From Vicinamibacterales bacterium (lineage in GTDB: Bacteria > Acidobacteriota > Vicinamibacteria > Vicinamibacterales > CAVVIG01), in contig DATLRO010000068.1 in assembly GCA_035534615.1 (NCBI GenBank), positions 3,432-67,431 on the forward strand: a DNA stretch of 64,000 bases, in the 5' to 3' direction. Positions 15,355-35,113 of the stretch are shown one piece after another. The notes under the pieces were generated by a model, which was given only the letters and a program-made list of their open reading frames with translations, was not told the origin of the DNA and searched no databases. Positions within the stretch are counted from its first letter, which is position 1. Each line of letters opens with the position of its first letter. The translations under genes and the position numbers were made by a program.

Positions 15355-16221
15355 ATGGCTGAGCGGTCCGAAGCGCGCCTGCGCGCCGACATCGTCGAGA
15401 TCGGGCGGCGTCTCCACGAGCGGGGGTACGTCGCCTCGAACGACGGCAACATCAGCGCCCGGCTGGATGGCGCGCGCCTGCTGACGACCCCGAGAGGCGT
15501 GTCGAAGCGCGACATGACCCCCGACATGATGGTGGTCACGGATCTCGACGGGCGCAAGCTGGCCGGCGAGCGGACGGCCTCGTCGGAACTGCTGATGCAC
15601 CTCGAGGTCTACCGGAACCGGCCCGAGGTGGAGGCGGTCGTGCACGCGCATCCGCCCGCAGCCACGGGGTTCGCGGTGGCCGGCATCCCGCTGGACCGGG
15701 CGGTGCTCGCGGAAATCGTCACGACGCTCGGCAGCATTCCGATTGCGGCCTACGGCACGCCGTCGACGCAGGAACTGGCCGACGCGGTCCGCCAGTACAT
15801 CCGGGCGCACGACGGGCTGCTGCTGGCCAATCACGGCGCATTGACCGTCGGCGGCGATCTGTTCACCGCGTACTACAACATGGAGCGGGTCGAGCACTTC
15901 GCGCGCATCAGTCTGGTGGCGCGGCTGCTCGGGCGCGAGTATCTGCTGTCGCGCGAGGAAGTCGAGCGGCTGCAGGGCCTGCGCGGTGCGTACGGCGTGG
16001 CGGCTCCGGCGCCGATCTGCACGGACGGCAGCCAGGCGCCGGCCGCGGGCGAGGTCGCCAGCTGCCAGGTGATTCAGGCGCCGCCGGGGGGCGGCCTCCG
16101 GCTCGTGCCCGACGTCCCGGGGACGGCGGCCGGCGCGCCGCCGAGCGACGACACCGAAATTCGGTTAACATACCGCGAGCTGACGGCGCTCATCGAGGAC
16201 GCGGTCAGGAACCTGACATAA
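15355..16221 (+). CDS. class II (FucA/RhaD/AraD-family) aldolase with ~70-aa C-terminal extension
   Basis: [37 protein letters not shown] (metal His ligands). After about 215 aa comes a Pro/Gly/Ala linker and a terminal amphipathic helix, [19 protein letters not shown]. Confidence 0.9.
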
Positions 16222-16288
16222 TCCGCCTGCGCGTCGCGGGTGGCGGCCGGCGGCCGGCGTCAGCGCCGGCCATGGCCTGGAGGAGAGT

Positions 16289-16579
16289 ATGGGCGAGGCG
16301 CTCGGGATGATCGAGACGAAGGGACTTGTCGCGATGATCGAGGCGGCCGACGCCATGGTCAAGGCCGCGAAGGTCACGCTGGTGGGCTGGGAGAAGATCG
16401 GCGCCGGCTACGTCACGGCGCTCGTGCGCGGTGACGTCGCCGCCGTGAAGGCGGCGACCGACGCCGGGGCGGCCGCCGCCCGCCGCGTCGGCGAGCTCGT
16501 GTCGGTCCACGTCATTCCGCGCCCGCACGCGAGTCTCGAGGACACCCTGCCGATCGGCAGGTCGGGCGCCAAGAGCTAG
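16289..16579 (+). CDS. BMC-H shell protein (PF00936-type hexamer, PduA/EutM/CcmK-like)
   Basis: [34 protein letters not shown] pore loop, [28 protein letters not shown] before the ATG. Confidence 0.93.
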
Positions 16580-16603
16580 ACACGGGTTCCGATCGGCTCC
16601 CTC

Positions 16604-16873
16604 ATGATTCTGGCCAAAGTCGTCGGCACCGTGGTCGCGACCCGCAAAGATCCCCGCCTGGTCAGCCAGAAGCTGCTGGTCGCCCGACCGCTGGATCCGC
16701 GCGGCAAGCCGGAAGGCCACTACCTGGTCGCGGTCGACACCGTCGACGCCGGCTTCGGCGACATGGTGCTGATCGTCAACGGCAGCTCGGCGCGGATGGC
16801 GGCCGGCCTCAAGGACTGCCCGGTCGACGCCGCCATCGTCGGCGTCGTCGACACCGTCGAGCTCGACGAATAG
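16604..16873 (+). CDS. BMC-P vertex protein 1 (EutN/CcmL family, PF03319-type)
   Basis: MILAKVVGTVVATRKDPRLVSQKLLVARPLD..AVDTVDAG.GDMVLIV.GS.AR..VDAAIVGVVD. Confidence 0.9.
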   Translation: MILAKVVGTVVATRKDPRLVSQKLLVARPLDPRGKPEGHYLVAVDTVDAGFGDMVLIVNGSSARMAAGLKDCPVDAAIVGVVDTVELDE

Positions 16874-16886
16874 GGAAACGCCCGGC

Positions 16887-17165
16887 ATGCAGCTCGCGCG
16901 CGTCATCGGCGACGTGGTCACCACCAGGAAGGATCCGGCGCTGATCGGCCTGACCCTGCTGATCGTGCAGCCGCTCACGCCCGATCACCAGCCGATCGGC
17001 CGCGCGGTGATCGCCGCGGACACGGTCGGCGCCGGCGTGGGCGAAGAGGTGTTCTTCGTCCGGGGCAAAGAAGCCAGTTTCCCGTTCTTTCCCGCCGAGG
17101 TGCCCGTCGACGCGGGGATCGTCGGCATCATCGATTACTGGACCGTCGACGCCCCGCGTCCCTAG
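16887..17165 (+). CDS. BMC-P vertex protein 2 (EutN/CcmL family)
   Basis: MQLARVIGDVVTTRKDPALIGLTLLIVQPL..AADTVGAGVGEEVFFV.G..VDAGIVGIID. Confidence 0.9.
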   Translation: MQLARVIGDVVTTRKDPALIGLTLLIVQPLTPDHQPIGRAVIAADTVGAGVGEEVFFVRGKEASFPFFPAEVPVDAGIVGIIDYWTVDAPRP

Positions 17166-17177
17166 CCGGCCGCCGTC

Positions 17178-17474
17178 ATGCTGCTCGCCCGAGTCGTCGG
17201 CACCGTGGTCTCCACCCAGAAGCACCGGAAGTTCACCGGCGCCAAGCTGCTGCTCGTTCAGCCGCTGACGCTGGAGGAGACGCCCAGCGGCACGCCCGTG
17301 CTGGCGGTCGACGGGGTGGGCGCGGGCGTGCACGAGAAGGTGCTGATCGTCCTGGAAGGGCGGGCCGCCAGCGACGCCATCAGCCAGCGGGGCGCGCCGG
17401 TCGACGCCGCCATCGTCGGGATCGTGGACCACGTCGATCTGGGGACCGGCGCGGCTGCGGAGGCCGGCCGATGA
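17178..17474 (+). CDS. BMC-P vertex protein 3 (EutN/CcmL family)
   Basis: MLLARVVGTVVSTQKHRKFTGAKLLLVQPL..AVDGVGAGVHEKVLIV.EG..VDAAIVGIVD. Confidence 0.9.
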   Translation: MLLARVVGTVVSTQKHRKFTGAKLLLVQPLTLEETPSGTPVLAVDGVGAGVHEKVLIVLEGRAASDAISQRGAPVDAAIVGIVDHVDLGTGAAAEAGR

Positions 17475-19481: not shown

Positions 19482-20047
19482 AGAACGTGTCTCGCGTTGT
19501 CTGGACCGCTGTGGCGGTCGTGTCCATGCTGGCCGTCAGCGGTCTCAAGGCGTCCGCCCAGGATCAGATTCCGACCGAGAAGGGGCCGATCCTGGTGGTG
19601 GAGACGGTCCGGGGGACCTTCGAGATCAAGACCTATCCCAAAGAGGCCCCGAAAACCGTCGCGCACATCGTCGCGCTCACCAAGCGCGGCTTCTACAACG
19701 GCCTGCGCTTTCACCGCGTCGTGCCGGGCTTCGTCATCCAGGTCGGCGACCCGCAGAGCCGCGACCTGTCGAAGCGGGCGCTCTGGGGCACCGGCGGCAG
19801 CGGCCATCCGATCGGCGTCGCCGAGTTCAGTCCGAAGCTGACGCACATCACGGGAGCCGTCGCCATGGCGTACGCCGGCACGCCGCAGTCGGCCGACAGC
19901 CAGTTCTACATCACGCTGGCCCCGCAGCACAGCCTCGACGGCAAGTACGTGGTGTTCGGCCAGGTGATCAAGGGCGACGACGTGCCGGCGAAGATCAAGG
20001 TGGGCGACCTGATCAAGAAGATGTACGTGAAACCCGGGACGGAGTAG
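19478..20047 (+). CDS. cyclophilin-type peptidyl-prolyl cis-trans isomerase, secreted
   Basis: AGGGAG RBS, signal peptide, FYNGLRFHRVVPGFVIQVGDP, SQFYIT. Confidence 0.9.
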   Translation: MKNVSRVVWTAVAVVSMLAVSGLKASAQDQIPTEKGPILVVETVRGTFEIKTYPKEAPKTVAHIVALTKRGFYNGLRFHRVVPGFVIQVGDPQSRDLSKRALWGTGGSGHPIGVAEFSPKLTHITGAVAMAYAGTPQSADSQFYITLAPQHSLDGKYVVFGQVIKGDDVPAKIKVGDLIKKMYVKPGTE

Positions 20048-20990
20048 TCGGCACGAAGGACGCCAGCTCGGGATACGCCGCGACGAACGCGGGCGGATAG
20101 TCGCCCGCGGTCGGCAGGCGGAGCCGGTGTTTGAGCATCAGGGCGTTGGCCGGCGCTTTGGCCGCGAAGTGGTTGTTCAGGTAGACGTACAGCTTCTTCA
20201 CCAGGCGACCGGCCGCGTCGATCGTCCGCGCGAACTCGTCCACCTCGGCCGGCGCGTACAGGTAGTTGTACCGGTCCTCCGCGTGCTCGTGCCGCCACCA
20301 GGCCGCCGCGTTCCGCCCGTGCAGCCGCAGGTAGTACGCCGTCGGCAGGTTCGGCAGCTCGTTCTGGCGGATCGAGAAGCGGAATTTCGGCTCGTCGATC
20401 TGGACCCACGCGGCGCCGAAGCCGTTGAGCAGCGCCAGCGTGTCGCCGAGGCGGTCGCTCCAGCTCCGATGGCGCAGCTCGACCGCCATCGGATAGCCGG
20501 CGAACGCCCGGAGCAGGCCGGCGAGGTGGTCGCGCGAGTCGGCGGCGTCCTTGAAGCTCGGCGGGAACTGCGCGAGCAGCATGCCGAGCCGGCCGGCGGC
20601 GGCGATCGGCTCGATCCCGGTCCGGAAGGCGTCGAGATCGGCCTGGGTGACGCGCGCCAGTTCGTCCAGGACGCCGGCCGGCACGTCGCCCGCCGGCACC
20701 CCGGGCAGCGCCGCCTGCCTGAACATCTCCGGGTGCGTGAACTTCCGGTACAGCTTGAGGGAGAACCGGAAGCCGGGCGGCGTGCGGGCCACCCACGAGC
20801 GGGCGATGGCGGCGCGCGGCTGTCCGTAGAACGTCGTGTTGACCTCGACGGTGTCGAAGCGCTCGGCGTAATAGGCGAGCTCGTCGAACGGTTTCGGGCG
20901 CGCGGCCGTGGCCGGGTAGAACAGGCCGGTCCACGTCCCCCGGCCGGTCGGATAGTTCCAGCCGGACGTCCCGATGTACAGATCACCCAT
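20013..20990 (-). CDS. DUF72 family protein
   Basis: YIGTSGWNYP, FDTVEVNTTFYG, RHRSW, typical DUF72 length. Converges on and overlaps the PPIase 3' end by 35 nt. Confidence 0.88.
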   Translation of the reverse strand: MGDLYIGTSGWNYPTGRGTWTGLFYPATAARPKPFDELAYYAERFDTVEVNTTFYGQPRAAIARSWVARTPPGFRFSLKLYRKFTHPEMFRQAALPGVPAGDVPAGVLDELARVTQADLDAFRTGIEPIAAAGRLGMLLAQFPPSFKDAADSRDHLAGLLRAFAGYPMAVELRHRSWSDRLGDTLALLNGFGAAWVQIDEPKFRFSIRQNELPNLPTAYYLRLHGRNAAAWWRHEHAEDRYNYLYAPAEVDEFARTIDAAGRLVKKLYVYLNNHFAAKAPANALMLKHRLRLPTAGDYPPAFVAAYPELASFVPTTPSRVSRTSS

Positions 20991-20996
20991 GACGGC

Positions 20997-21332
20997 TCAT
21001 CCGAGCGCGCGATACCGATCCTGGTCGAAGCCGAAGACGACCGTCGTCCCCTTGATGAGGATCGGCCGTTTGATCAGGTTCGGCTGCTGCAGCATGAGGT
21101 CGATCGCTTCCTTCTTCGTCGTGGGCAGCGGCCGGGTCTTGAACACCGGGCTCCGGCGGCTGACGAAGTCCAGGATGTGGTCCGCGTCGACGTGGCGCTC
21201 GAGAAACGCCCGATCCGGCGGCTGGCGGTTGATGTCGCGTTCTTCGACGTCGAGTCCGATCTGCTCCAGAAACCTTCTGGCGTGGCGGCAGGTCGTTCAC
21301 GTCGGCTTCCAGTAGAAGAGTGCGCGCGTCAT
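20997..21332 (-). CDS. ArsC/Spx/YffB-family thioredoxin-fold protein with in-frame UGA at the catalytic Cys position (candidate selenoprotein)
   Basis: Hand translation gives MTRALFYWKPT-[TGA]-TTCRHARRFLEQIGLDVEERDI...LMLQQPNLIKRPILIKGTTVVFGFDQDRYRALG*. It aligns with the YffB pattern LYGIKNCDTCKKARRWLE...IKRPLL..GF. The TGA is at 21297-21299. An SD-like AAGGGGGG lies upstream of the ATG. Absent from the ORF track because the TGA splits the frame. Confidence 0.7.
21266..21280 (-). promoter_or_regulatory. SECIS-like hairpin downstream of the in-frame UGA
   Basis: mRNA: UGA, 16 nt, then CCAGAA-GGU-UUCUGG (6-bp stem, apical GGU). Confidence 0.4.
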
Positions 21333-21450
21333 GGGCCCCCCTTGATGCCCATTGTAAAGGGGCGGGGGCGATCGGGACGCGGAAAACCCGGGCCGGGAGC
21401 CGGCCCGCGCGTGCGGGTACAATTGACCCGGTGGCGCAGCCGGAGCGATC

Positions 21451-22089
21451 TTGACGATCAACGAGATTTTCCATTCGATTCAGGGGGAATCGACCCACGC
21501 GGGGCGGCCCTGCGTCTTCGTCCGCCTGACGGCGTGCGACCTCCGCTGTACCTGGTGCGACACGCCGTACGCCTTCCACGAAGGCCGCCGGATGAGCGTG
21601 GACGAGGTCATGGCGGCGGTGGAGGCGTACGCCTGCCCGCTCGTCGAGATCACCGGCGGCGAGCCGCTGCTGCAGGAAGACGTCTACCCGCTGATGGACC
21701 GCCTGCTGGCGGCCGGCCGGACCGTACTGCTCGAGACCGGCGGTCACCGGAGCACCGCCCGCGTCCCGCCCGCCGTCGTCCGGGTCCTCGACGTGAAGTG
21801 TCCGGGCAGCGGCGAGGCGGCCCGCATGGACTGGCGCAATCTCGACGCGCTGGCGCCGCACGACGAGGTCAAGTTCGTGATCCGGGACCGCGACGACTAT
21901 CTGTTCGCCCGTGACGTCATCCGCCGGCATGCGCTCGTCGGGCGCTGCGCGGCCGTCCTGCTGTCGCCGGTGCACGGCGTGCTGGCGCCGCGCGAGCTGT
22001 CCGCCTGGGTGCTGGAGGACGCGCTGCCCGTGCGCGTGCAGCTCCAGGTGCACAAGTACATCTGGGGCGCGGACGTGAGAGGAGTGTGA
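21451..22089 (+). CDS. queE: 7-carboxy-7-deazaguanine synthase (radical SAM)
   Basis: [22 protein letters not shown] cluster motif. TTG start. Confidence 0.9.
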
Positions 22090-32459: not shown

Positions 32460-32927
32460 ATGGCTGTCACCGTCGGAACGAAGGCCCCCGATTTCACCCT
32501 GCCCGATCAGGATCTCAAGCCGGTCACGCTGAGCACCGAAGCGGGCGTGCACAACGTGGTGCTGGCGTTCTTCCCCGCCGCGTTCACGTCGGTCTGCACG
32601 AAGGAGCTGTGCACGTTCCGCGACTCGCTCGCCAGACTGAACGGCGCCAGCGCGGCCGTGTACGGCATCAGCGTCGACACCCCGTTCAGCCTGAAGAAGT
32701 TCGCCGCCGAACAGCAGCTGAACTTCCCGCTGCTGAGCGACTTCAACAAGGAGGTCATCCGCCGGTACGACGTGGTGATCGACGACCTGCTCGGCCTGAA
32801 AGGCCTCGCGAAGCGGGCGGTGTTCGTGATCGACAAGGGCGGGATGGTGCGCCATGCCGAAGTGCTGGCCGACGCCCGCAACGAGCCGGACTACGCCAGG
32901 GTGCACGCCGCGCTCGCCGCGCTCTGA
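32460..32927 (+). CDS. peroxiredoxin (AhpC/TSA family)
   Basis: GGAGGA RBS; FFPAAFTSVCTKELC peroxidatic Cys motif. Confidence 0.9.
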   Translation: MAVTVGTKAPDFTLPDQDLKPVTLSTEAGVHNVVLAFFPAAFTSVCTKELCTFRDSLARLNGASAAVYGISVDTPFSLKKFAAEQQLNFPLLSDFNKEVIRRYDVVIDDLLGLKGLAKRAVFVIDKGGMVRHAEVLADARNEPDYARVHAALAAL

Positions 32928-32973: not shown

Positions 32974-34323
32974 TCAGGCCTCCGGCCGCTCGTCCGGCGG
33001 GGCCTCCCCCTCGTGCTCCGGCGACAGCCAGACGCGCGCGACCCGCAGCCCGTCCAGCGTTTCCACCCGCAGCGTCCGCCGTTCCACGTCGATCGTGTCG
33101 CCCACGGCCGCGCGGCGGCCGAGCCGCCCCAGCACGTAGCCGCCGATCGTGGCGTACATCGTCTCGTCGATGTGCAGGTCGAACTGCTCGTTCACGTCCG
33201 TGATGAGCGTGAGGCCGTCGACGTACGCCGCGCCGTTGTCGAGCGTCAGGATCCGGGCGGGCGTGCCCCCGAACTCCCCGCCGATGTCGCCGACGATCCG
33301 CTCCATCAGCCGCTCGAAGGTCACCAGGCCGGCGGTGCCGCCGTACTCGTCGATCACGATCGCCTGGCGGGTCCGCCGCCGGCGCATCTCCGCCAGCAGA
33401 TCGTCCGCCTTCATCGTCTCCGGGACGACGAGCGCCTCCCGCGTGAGCGCCGCCAGGCTGAAGTGCGCCGACGGCGCCGTCATGGCGCGGAACAGATCGG
33501 TCACGAGCAGCACGCCGATGATGTCGTCGAGGCTGTCGCGGTACACGGGCAGGCGGGTGTGCGGGCCGCGCGAGAGGCGATCGATCACCTGCGCGAGCGG
33601 CATGTCCGCCGGCAGCGCGACCATCTCCGTCCGCGGCACCATGATCCGCCCGGCGGTCAGATCGGCGAAGTCGAACACCCGGTGCAGCATCCGCTCCTCG
33701 CCTTCCTCGAGGACGCCCGCTTCCTGGCTGGCCGTGACGAGCATCTTCAGCTCTGCCTCCGAGTGCACCAGCGAGTGCCGGCTCGGCGCCCGCAGGCCGA
33801 TGGCCGACACCACGGCGCGGCCCATCGCGTTCAGCAGCGCGATGAACGGCCAGAACAGCTTCATGAACAGTTCGGTCGGCTTGATGACCCACAGCGCCGT
33901 CCGCTCGGAGTACTGCAGCGCGACCGTCTTCGGCGCGAGCTCCCCGAGCACCACCTGCAGCGACGTGATGAGCGCGAACGCCAGCGACACCGCCACGCTG
34001 TGCGCGGTCGCCTCCGCGATGTGCGTCGGCAGGAAGCCGAACCCCGGCTCGATCAGCGACGCGAGCGCCGGCTCCCCGATCCAGCCCAGGCCGAGGCTGG
34101 CCATCGTGATGCCGAGCTGCGTGGCGGCGATGTAGCTGTCCGGACTGGTGGTCGCGCGCCGCAGCGTGCGGGCCATCCGGTTGCCCTCCGCGATGAGCTG
34201 GTCGATGCGGGTCTTGCGGACGGTGACGAGCGAGAACTCGGCGGCCACGAAGAAGCCGTTGGCGAAGACGAGCGCCAGGATTGCGAGCAGCCGCATCCCG
34301 ATGTGCAGGGGCGCAGGGTCCAT
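32974..34323 (-). CDS. hemolysin-family / CNNM-CBS-CorC membrane protein
   Basis: DUF21 TM domain (FFVAAEFSLV), CBS pair, CorC_HlyC C-terminal domain. The ATG at 34323 is chosen inside the longer track ORF. Confidence 0.88.
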   Translation of the reverse strand: MDPAPLHIGMRLLAILALVFANGFFVAAEFSLVTVRKTRIDQLIAEGNRMARTLRRATTSPDSYIAATQLGITMASLGLGWIGEPALASLIEPGFGFLPTHIAEATAHSVAVSLAFALITSLQVVLGELAPKTVALQYSERTALWVIKPTELFMKLFWPFIALLNAMGRAVVSAIGLRAPSRHSLVHSEAELKMLVTASQEAGVLEEGEERMLHRVFDFADLTAGRIMVPRTEMVALPADMPLAQVIDRLSRGPHTRLPVYRDSLDDIIGVLLVTDLFRAMTAPSAHFSLAALTREALVVPETMKADDLLAEMRRRRTRQAIVIDEYGGTAGLVTFERLMERIVGDIGGEFGGTPARILTLDNGAAYVDGLTLITDVNEQFDLHIDETMYATIGGYVLGRLGRRAAVGDTIDVERRTLRVETLDGLRVARVWLSPEHEGEAPPDERPEA

Positions 34324-34399
34324 GGAAGGCCTCCCAGCGCGACTGTACCGGACGCAAGGCCGCCGCCGCAAACGCCCCCGCGGCGCGCGGCCGCCGCCC

Positions 34400-35113
34400 T
34401 CACGCGTCGGCGCCGCCGGCGTGGGCGTCCACGAACGCGTCGACCGCCCGCCGGGCCGCGGGATCCAGCCGGGTGAACTGCACCCCCATGCCCGTCCGCT
34501 GATCCGCCCAGGCCACCCGCGCGTCAACTTCCAGGTCGGTGTCTCCCCCGGGCAGCCGGAACCGCAGCCGGACCGCCGTGCCCGCGTCGACCACCGTCGC
34601 CGTGCGGAGCCCCATCCCGCCCCGGCTGATGTCGAACGCGATCCCGGCGACGACCGCGTCGCCGGCCCGGCAGGCGACCGCCGCGCCCAGCGTGACCCGC
34701 GGGCTGCCGCGGCGGTTGAAGCGGTCGGGGAAGAGGTGCGGCGCCAGCGCCGGCAGGATCTGCTGCGCGGTGCTGTGCTCGTTGACGTAGCCGGCGATCC
34801 CCAGCGCCGCCAGGGTCCGGACCTCCGCGGCGCCGGTCACCGACCCGCTGAAGACGACGATCGGCAGCGCCCGCGCGATCGGCCGGACGGCCTGCACGAG
34901 ATCCGCGCCGGTCGGGCGCGGCAGCCGGAGATCGAGCAGCAGCAGGTCGACCGGCGCCGCACCGGGCGCGAGGTGCGCGAGCAGGGCGTCGCCGGTCGCC
35001 ACCGCCACGGCCCGATGACCCGCGCCGTCGAGCGCCGCGACGAACCGGTCGCGCACGCTCCCGTCGTGGCCGGCGACGAGGACGGTCCTGCTGATGCCTG
35101 TGTGCGTGAGCAT
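34400..35113 (-). CDS. response regulator receiver fused to PilZ domain
   Basis: REC domain (VLVAGHD..LLLDLRLP..), then a C-terminal RxxxR / D.S.GG PilZ signature (RRGSPR..FDISRGGMG). The start at 35113 lies inside a spurious 601-aa ORF. Confidence 0.8.
   Translation of the reverse strand: MLTHTGISRTVLVAGHDGSVRDRFVAALDGAGHRAVAVATGDALLAHLAPGAAPVDLLLLDLRLPRPTGADLVQAVRPIARALPIVVFSGSVTGAAEVRTLAALGIAGYVNEHSTAQQILPALAPHLFPDRFNRRGSPRVTLGAAVACRAGDAVVAGIAFDISRGGMGLRTATVVDAGTAVRLRFRLPGGDTDLEVDARVAWADQRTGMGVQFTRLDPAARRAVDAFVDAHAGGADA

Follow-up and report, generated by a model that had tools for sequence, protein, structure and literature searches.

The 64-kb stretch of DNA analysed here (64,000 nucleotides, hereafter the window) belongs to an Acidobacteriota genome of the order Vicinamibacterales. 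It carries, on the minus strand, a small gene of the ArsC/Spx/YffB family in which a TGA codon takes the place of a redox-active cysteine, and which very probably encodes a selenoprotein. The frame (21332..20997) consists of 111 codons and a TGA stop. It opens with an ATG at 21332-21330, closes with a TGA at 20999-20997 and has a single in-frame internal stop, the TGA of codon 12 (Table 1). The translation reads MTRALFYWKPT*TTCRHARRFLEQIGLDVEERDINRQPPDRAFLERHVDADHILDFVSRRSPVFKTRPLPTTKKEAIDLMLQQPNLIKRPILIKGTTVVFGFDQDRYRALG*, with MTRALFYWKPT*TTCRHARRFLE at the N-terminus and NLIKRPILIKG..VVFGF within the C-terminal part, and 6 nt (20991-20996) separate the terminal TGA from the ATG of a DUF72 gene. 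At this locus, the open reading frame (ORF) list of the window contains no more than a C-terminal fragment of 49 aa (20997..21146) and, upstream, a piece of 54 aa; the public gene calls of three independent assemblies again give the 49-aa "ArsC" fragment only. The initial annotation had proposed this frame with the TGA as its sole interruption, had matched its product to ArsC/Spx/YffB with the UGA at the N-terminal redox Cys, and had stated that automated annotation misses or truncates the gene. Every coordinate holds, as do the family match and the fate of the gene in annotation.

When C is substituted for U, the protein is matched by the Pfam ArsC family (PF03960) at E=4.9e-14 and 52.8 bits, against a cut-off of 24. 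The fold was modelled with AlphaFold on a Cys orthologue that is 76% identical to the window protein (P0001; predicted local distance difference test 93.1, predicted template modelling (TM) score 0.82). The core of the model is of the thioredoxin-like beta-alpha-beta type, and the CxxC sits where helix 1 begins. The PDB structures that match it best are, without exception, ArsC/Spx/YffB proteins, namely SMU.1142c (3l78), the YffB protein PA3664 (1rw1), Spx, 3gkx and Escherichia coli ArsC, with TM scores of 0.84 for 3gkx, 0.83 for 1rw1 (root-mean-square deviation 2.2 Å) and ~0.72 for E. coli ArsC. Sequence matches in the PDB give E=4e-10 to 2e-8 for Spx and 2e-7 for YffB. Profile score and family fold thus both place the protein in the ArsC family. 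We also aligned it residue by residue with E. coli ArsC and YffB (both from MG1655) and with Bacillus subtilis Spx, using for the last what we take to be its sequence, which is consistent with the alignment from the PDB sequence search. In ArsC the residue opposite the UGA is the nucleophilic Cys12, and in Spx it is Cys10.

A search of ~5.8 billion proteins returned 2316 matches, of which the best 120 were analysed. These homologues are ~110 aa long, share about 59-76% identity with the window protein and are named ArsC, Spx or MgsR; some come from Vicinamibacterales. The UGA column holds Cys (in a CTTC motif) in 114/120, a pattern therefore far beyond chance, and the in-frame UGA is accordingly aligned with a homologue Cys at a redox-active position. 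Five of the 120 show a 'W' in this column, P0008 and P0012 among them. We checked P0012 in the DNA, and both contigs carry TGA at the 'W' column (L001:1142-1144, L002:105-107). The 'W' is therefore a gene-caller artefact and the gene another UGA form. Genome-wide reassignment of the codon does not explain the pattern, since TGA is the ordinary stop in 26 of the 39 confidently coding ORFs of the window, the ArsC-like gene included.

The UGA itself is conserved in orthologues. A genome scan confirmed by tblastn, with one genome per species and the window's own genome not included, gave 80 loci, all from Vicinamibacterales or Acidobacteriota metagenome-assembled genomes (MAGs) and 63-78% identical to the window protein. 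Codon 12 is TGA in 76 of them and TGC in 4. The same scan of JGI metagenomes gave a further 80 loci with TGA in 72, TGC in 7 and an unresolved codon in 1. The loci are related sequences, so that these counts are not independent events. The predicted Sec (selenocysteine) form is the majority state, at ~90% of the Vicinamibacterales loci examined. All 145 distinct TGA-form genes have exactly one internal stop, their lengths cluster at 108-111 aa, and in 135/145 the UGA is preceded by an ATG at a distance of exactly 11 codons; no conserved in-frame start occurs in them between codons 13 and 79. The coding sequence is thus intact on both sides of the conserved UGA, and the protein sequence of the Sec-form genes is conserved on both sides as well. 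The codons for W-K-P-T, just upstream of the UGA, vary synonymously while the amino acids are kept, and therefore both sides of the UGA are translated in one frame.

Several putative Sec/Cys switches are visible among the orthologues, and the nearest neighbour of the 10 Cys forms is a Sec form. One case is a TGC orthologue (L011) that is 93% identical to a TGA form (L106) and has a complete hairpin of the kind described below, rare codons included, at L011:3034-3078, which suggests a recent switch from Sec to Cys. In another locus (L018) the stem is retained and the G-U loop is lost. Two different TGA-form copies, each with the full syntenic neighbourhood, were assigned to one MAG, GS_HAYS_MAG_00036 (L049 and L059; JBKPNQ010000163.1 and JBKPNQ010000124.1), either through a duplicated region or through a mixed bin.

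Downstream of the UGA lies a short hairpin that resembles a bacterial selenocysteine insertion sequence (SECIS). Its 15-nt consensus is CCAGA-AGKUW-UCUGG, and the window copy, CCAGA-AGGUU-UCUGG at 21280-21266, is made up of a 5' arm CCAGA(A) (21280-21275), a G-U-containing loop (21275-21271) and a 3' arm (U)UCUGG (21271-21266). Counted from the UGA, the stem begins after 16 nt and the loop after 21-22 nt. In an alignment of 76 Sec forms the region downstream of the UGA is occupied by the common sequence ACGACCTGCCGCAACG, followed by CCAGAAG[T/G]T[T/A]TCTGG, and RNAalifold returns exactly one helix, CCAGA with UCUGG (alignment columns 32-36 with 42-46). Four of the five pairs are invariant among these forms; the fifth is A-U in 73, G-U in 2 and G-C in 1, the last (L082) being a compensatory change from A-U to G-C. 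A sixth A-U pair can form in 59/76. Overall, 96.5% of the cells are paired, versus 26-63% after a shift of the 3' arm by 1-3 columns. All loop variants among the orthologues contain G-U. The motif has one copy in the 64-kb window, with 0.05 chance matches expected.

The hairpin is also marked by its codons. We compared 78 Sec-form genes, setting the hairpin codons against the rest of the same genes, in which the GC content at third codon positions (GC3) is 0.81. Arginine in the hairpin is encoded by AGA in 75/78 genes, against a background of 1.8% of Arg codons. The other positions show the same preference: AGT in 67/67 Ser (background 8% of Ser codons), TAT in 16/16 Tyr (16% of Tyr codons), TTT in 59/60 Phe (17% of Phe codons), GCC for Ala in 78/78 (35% of Ala codons) and CTG for Leu in 78/78 (44% of Leu codons). 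Codons 13, 14 and 16, in contrast, vary freely at synonymous positions. This codon-level constraint is strong evidence for the predicted hairpin and leaves its mark on the protein too: at residue 20, Sec forms have S, R or G (encoded by AGT, AGG and GGT), as against D, A, E, R, S, G or T in Cys forms. When an intact hairpin is defined as five standard pairs with GU in the loop, it occurs in 134/134 distinct TGA forms vs 1/10 TGC forms (Fisher p=2e-13, without phylogenetic correction).

In published descriptions, the apical loop of a bacterial SECIS lies 16-37 nt from the UGA (PMC10778597), and a "minimal" hairpin of 5/6 bp is a described form of the element (PMC4607533). The stem-loop found here lies 3' of the UGA with its loop within this distance and with G and U in the loop. 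We regard it as a very short, rigidly conserved SECIS-like element that is predicted to recruit SelB.

Together, the TGA kept in ~148 orthologues, the pairing with Cys and the hairpin with its rare codons strongly support the reading of codon 12 as Sec. The gene would accordingly encode, in all likelihood, a ~12-kDa thioredoxin-fold protein of the ArsC/Spx/YffB family with the motif Sec12-Thr-Thr-Cys15. The initial annotation had named this reading and several ways to probe it, and comparative evidence makes it highly probable. Cys orthologues aligned at the UGA column were recovered by the protein search with U replaced by C (about 60-76% identity), and the other UGA-containing orthologues it had asked after make up 76/80 genome loci and 72/80 metagenome loci. 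The SECIS-like hairpin looked for after the UGA is present at the right distance, is held by rare synonymous codons and is lost in Cys forms with one exception. Orthologues with a frameshifted or decayed gene would have spoken against it; the Sec-form orthologues contain no second stop or frameshift. Its statement that ArsC-like selenoproteins had been reported from metagenomic surveys is borne out by the literature (PMC2398784, PMC1794560, PMC9312934).

Several results weigh against this interpretation. Covariation in the hairpin is minimal and its stem near-invariant; the covariation is weak because the stem hardly varies. The window copy taken by itself folds no better than shuffled sequences (z=-0.5 for 91 nt, z=-1.3 for 45 nt), and its minimum-free-energy fold is in a shifted register. 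An extended lower stem, copied from the fold of one orthologue (L007), was tried and rejected, having only 65% of its cells paired and weak covariation. Rfam gave no match to a SECIS or other element in the window at gathering thresholds or in 21150-21400 at E<=10, a null result that is uninformative in that Rfam has no model for this hairpin. With regard to the decoding machinery, ARAGORN and Rfam found no tRNA-Sec in the 64-kb window, and motifs of SelA, SelD or SelB-type GTPases gave nothing credible when the window and 82 loci were translated in six frames; the searches for Sec machinery covered the window and the fetched locus flanks, not whole genomes.

One other explanation accepts that the UGA is recoded and differs in the residue inserted. 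The codon might be read as Cys by a tRNA-Sec-like tRNA(Cys) with a SelB-type factor, or as Trp, Cys or Arg by a suppressor or near-cognate tRNA stimulated by the hairpin. SelB-dependent systems that recode to Cys are known. The hairpin and the conserved UGA prove recoding and not the identity of the inserted residue, Cys and TGA forms switch easily (as in the 93% identical pair with the hairpin still present), and the window and fetched flanks yielded no sel genes. Against this explanation, the UGA coincides exactly with the nucleophilic residue of a CxxC redox motif, a classic Sec site; the hairpin matches bacterial SECIS elements in its distance and G-U loop; UxxC proteins of the ArsC-like kind are already described as selenoproteins; and, were Cys the product, a plain TGC would do without the cost of keeping rare codons. 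We therefore consider insertion of another residue improbable.

Since both sides of the UGA are translated in one frame, the gene can be neither a pseudogene nor a case of internal initiation, nor can translation terminate at the UGA with an independent product made downstream. Decay through a nonsense mutation would fit the way in which gene callers treat the gene as broken and report the 49-aa fragment only. It is rejected as very improbable on account of the orthologues, ~148 of which (62-78% protein identity) share the same TGA as their single internal stop, with no second stop or frameshift in any; the protein is conserved on both sides of the TGA, and the synonymous variation indicates purifying selection. 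Equally slight is the chance that translation stops at codon 12, yielding an 11-residue peptide and a separate downstream product, with the hairpin serving some other regulatory role. Such a product could begin at the GTG of codon 63, which is the start of the usually called 49-aa ORF. This GTG is present in only 62/145 genes, no start codon is conserved among codons 13-79, and a product begun there would lose the redox motif and the first beta-alpha-beta unit of the fold. Residues 1-11 (with FYWKPT) are part of strand 1 in this domain, and their amino-acid sequence is conserved. We rejected an internal start on these grounds. That the TGA is a misread or misassembled TGC or TGT, which the initial annotation had proposed to check by resequencing, has a negligible probability and was rejected, since the neighbouring DUF72 protein was located on contigs assembled independently from three runs (SRR8554501, SRR8554483 and SRR8554485), in which the ArsC-like gene is identical to that of the window with 0 mismatches, TGA included, and since orthologues carry the TGA too.

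Under the preferred reading, Sec insertion, the ribosome would start at the ATG at 21332. When it reaches the UGA of codon 12, the hairpin at 21280-21266 in the coding sequence would recruit a SelB-type factor carrying Sec-tRNA(Sec); Sec would be inserted, and translation would run on until the TGA at 20997. From the gene-level signature we infer that SelB and tRNA-Sec perform the decoding. The protein would act as a selenol/thiol oxidoreductase cycling through a Sec12-Cys15 selenenylsulfide, and family and motif make this redox couple the most likely chemistry. Co-expression with the DUF72 gene 6 nt downstream would complete the scheme.

Table 1. Features of the window discussed in the text, with the ArsC-like gene and its parts first.
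Feature	Position	Strand	Basis or remark
Full-length coding sequence, ArsC/Spx/YffB-family (seleno)protein	20997..21332	-	Proposed Sec at codon 12; Pfam PF03960, orthologues, predicted fold of Cys orthologue
In-frame UGA, codon 12, proposed Sec codon, first position of U-T-T-C redox motif	21297..21299	-	Aligns with Cys in homologues; conserved TGA
TGC codon, Cys15, proposed resolving cysteine of UxxC	21288..21290	-	Cys15 invariant in homologue alignment; Sec forms TGC 71/78, TGT 7/78
SECIS-like element GCCAGAAGGUUUCUGG	21266..21281	-	Comparative fold, codon bias, loss in Cys forms
Shine-Dalgarno-like run AAGGGGGG	21336..21343	-	Read from sequence; 3 nt upstream of ATG 21330-21332
DUF72 gene	20013..20990	-	PF01904, E=6e-56; 6 nt downstream of ArsC-like gene, probable operon partner
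Class II aldolase	15355-16221	+	PF00596
BMC-H shell protein	16289-16579	+	PF00936
Two EutN/CcmL pentamer genes	16604-16873 and 17178-17474	+	

The genomic neighbourhood of the ArsC-like gene is stable. A DUF72 homologue occurs in all 80 loci with tblastn matches, and in all but one of 79 genome loci (the exception being L057) it lies directly downstream on the same strand. Divergently transcribed genes flank the ArsC-like gene on one side, in the outward order QueE, QueC and an AlaX-like gene. To its other side, DUF72 on the ArsC-like strand is followed, on the opposite strand, by a cyclophilin, an EndoIII-type glycosylase and a 2-hydroxyacid dehydrogenase. Of the 80 loci with tblastn matches, about 61-80 contain these neighbours, and no ars genes were found near the ArsC-like gene, either among the window neighbours or in the 80 loci. 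The 6-nt spacing suggests that the ArsC-like and DUF72 genes form an operon; the synteny, observed within one order, may simply be inherited. A promoter and terminator scan of 20900-21520 found no sites. Visual inspection shows a GC-rich hairpin at 21383-21406 on the minus strand, GGGCCGG-CUC-CCGGCCC with GGGUUUU after it, that was not among the calls of the terminator scan. It is situated between the divergent queE and ArsC-like genes, ~50 nt upstream of the start of the latter, and could be a structure of the 5' untranslated region.

A bolder reading of this arrangement is doubtful. The gene would represent an undescribed clade of YffB/Spx-like selenoproteins, the default across the abundant order Vicinamibacterales of soils and overlooked in current annotations, that forms a fixed two-gene module with DUF72 and serves as its dedicated selenol/thiol reductant or redox partner. 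If true, it would provide the first functional handle on DUF72 and would mean that dominant soil bacteria depend on selenium.

We looked for further selenoproteins in the window. Eight candidates with an in-frame TGA and coding signal on both sides were considered, and all look like the end of one gene followed by another in the same frame; the 64-kb window yielded no second selenoprotein candidate. Among selenoproteins elsewhere, peroxiredoxins are a common family. The AhpC/TSA peroxiredoxin at 32460-32927 on the plus strand (PF00578, E=4e-38) is uninterrupted, with no in-frame TGA, and is not a second selenoprotein. ARAGORN also called a 71-nt tRNA-Ala(cgc) at 34021-34091 on the minus strand, with the anticodon at the unusual position 29. 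It falls below the Rfam tRNA gathering score, sits inside a long GC3-rich ORF (32974-34527, minus strand) and is probably a false positive. Elsewhere in the window, at 15355-17474 on the plus strand, lies an aldolase-associated bacterial microcompartment shell cluster (Table 1).

Selenoproteins have been reported in Acidobacteriota before. An early survey listed 3 families and 4 selenoproteins for the phylum (PMC1794560), Occallatibacter riparius has 3 selenoproteins (PMC12013277), and [NiFeSe] hydrogenase variants occur in Acidobacteriota (PMC13582414). For Vicinamibacterales, we found nothing relevant in literature that joins the order (Vicinamibacter, Luteitalea) to selenocysteine or sel genes. 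The present results imply wide occurrence of a putative Sec-decoding trait within this order, which is very common among soil Acidobacteriota.

These genes are poorly served by current annotation. At ~90% of the Vicinamibacterales loci examined, the gene is uncalled, is called as a 49-aa fragment or is given a Trp at the predicted Sec position. Some metagenome gene calls translate UGA as Trp, leading to spurious 'W' variants of selenoproteins in protein databases. The same databases show the Cys minority only, because the genes of the Sec majority are not called. The finding thus corrects a systematic annotation error. In addition, the hairpin offers a compact natural 15-nt SECIS candidate with ~150 natural variants, including Sec-to-Cys switches (L011), that would be useful for training selenoprotein finders.

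The element can be compared with the minimal SECIS of E. coli fdhF. Each is a short hairpin that closely follows the UGA within the ORF and has G-U in its apical loop; the GGUC loop of fdhF, as read here, lies 18 nt after the UGA and that of the window hairpin 21-22 nt, both within 16-37 nt. Unlike the fdhF element, the window hairpin has a different sequence, no evident bulged U, 5-6 conserved base pairs and a weak lower stem.

Among the known subfamilies of ArsC proteins, YffB (PA3664 of Pseudomonas aeruginosa, 1rw1; E. coli b2471) shares with the window protein a length of ~110-118 aa, a G-F motif near the C-terminus and the IKRP motif, and 1rw1 is among the two structures closest to the modelled orthologue (TM 0.83). 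However, the U-T-T-C of the window protein corresponds in E. coli YffB to C-D-T-I, with a single Cys, and yffB adjoins dapE without a DUF72 neighbour, whereas the window gene lies beside DUF72. The YffB-type model NF008107 gives 35.5 bits, below its cut-off of 121. The Spx/MgsR proteins (TIGR01617; 1z3e, 3gfk, 3l78), redox-sensing regulators that bind RNA polymerase, provide the best PDB sequence matches and have their CxxC at the same position, with CTSCRKARAWLE in Spx corresponding to UTTCRHARRFLE in the window protein; Arg60 and the RRP motif of Spx are kept. Gly52 and a C-terminal tail are specific features of Spx. The window protein has the UxxC but not these features: it lacks the ~15-20-residue C-terminal tail, and a His aligns with Gly52. 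Its score of 73.4 bits (U replaced by C) is borderline and below the TIGR01617 cut-off of 75.05, and its host is an Acidobacterium, while that of Spx is a Firmicute.

The ArsC of the E. coli R773/chromosomal type (TIGR00014; 1i9d) has the same fold (TM 0.72) and a nucleophile that aligns with the UGA. Its catalytic set is formed by Cys12 with the triad Arg60, Arg94 and Arg107. Arg94 is kept in the window protein as Arg89, within the IKRP motif, but Arg107 is replaced by Phe102, within a GF motif that is also present in Spx and YffB, and Arg60 aligns with Ser58, beside Arg59-Arg60. The ArsC motif is CGTS, whereas that of the window protein is of the CxxC type, as in Spx. TIGR00014 gives 31 bits against a cut-off of 106, so that neither the Arg triad nor the score of a glutaredoxin-dependent arsenate reductase is present. 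The NCBIfam model NF041106 (ArsC_rel_Se_1, ArsC family (seleno)protein) gives 25.3 bits against 85. Thus, with the Pfam cut-off reached and those of TIGR00014, TIGR01617 and NF041106 not reached, the protein is classified from its sequence as a member of the ArsC family that is neither a bona fide arsenate reductase nor an Spx orthologue.

ArsC-like selenoproteins with a UxxC motif have been known since 2006-2008. An 'ArsC-like' selenoprotein was described in Desulfotalea and Desulfuromonas (Zhang et al., 2006; PMC1794560). The Global Ocean Sampling (GOS) survey listed "Arsenate reductase (ArsC) 1", with UxxS, and "Arsenate reductase 2" (cd03032), with UxxC and 42 sequences (PMC2398784), and a 2022 review lists an "Arsenate reductase-like protein" (COG1393) with UxxC (PMC9312934). 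NF041106, flagged at NCBI as an ArsC family that includes selenoproteins, shows that the kind is curated; the window protein, below its cut-off, is not a member, and no selenoprotein-aware NCBIfam model reaches its cut-off for the window clade. The present gene adds a member to this known kind, probably one of a distinct clade, and reveals neither a new mechanism nor a new kind of protein. It shares with the known ArsC-like UxxC selenoproteins the PF03960/COG family, the N-terminal position of Sec and the Sec/Cys pairing with homologues, a likeness drawn from descriptions of family and motif. The known examples come from Deltaproteobacteria and marine metagenomes, whereas the present clade belongs to Vicinamibacterales of soil and sediment, in which the putative Sec form is the majority state.

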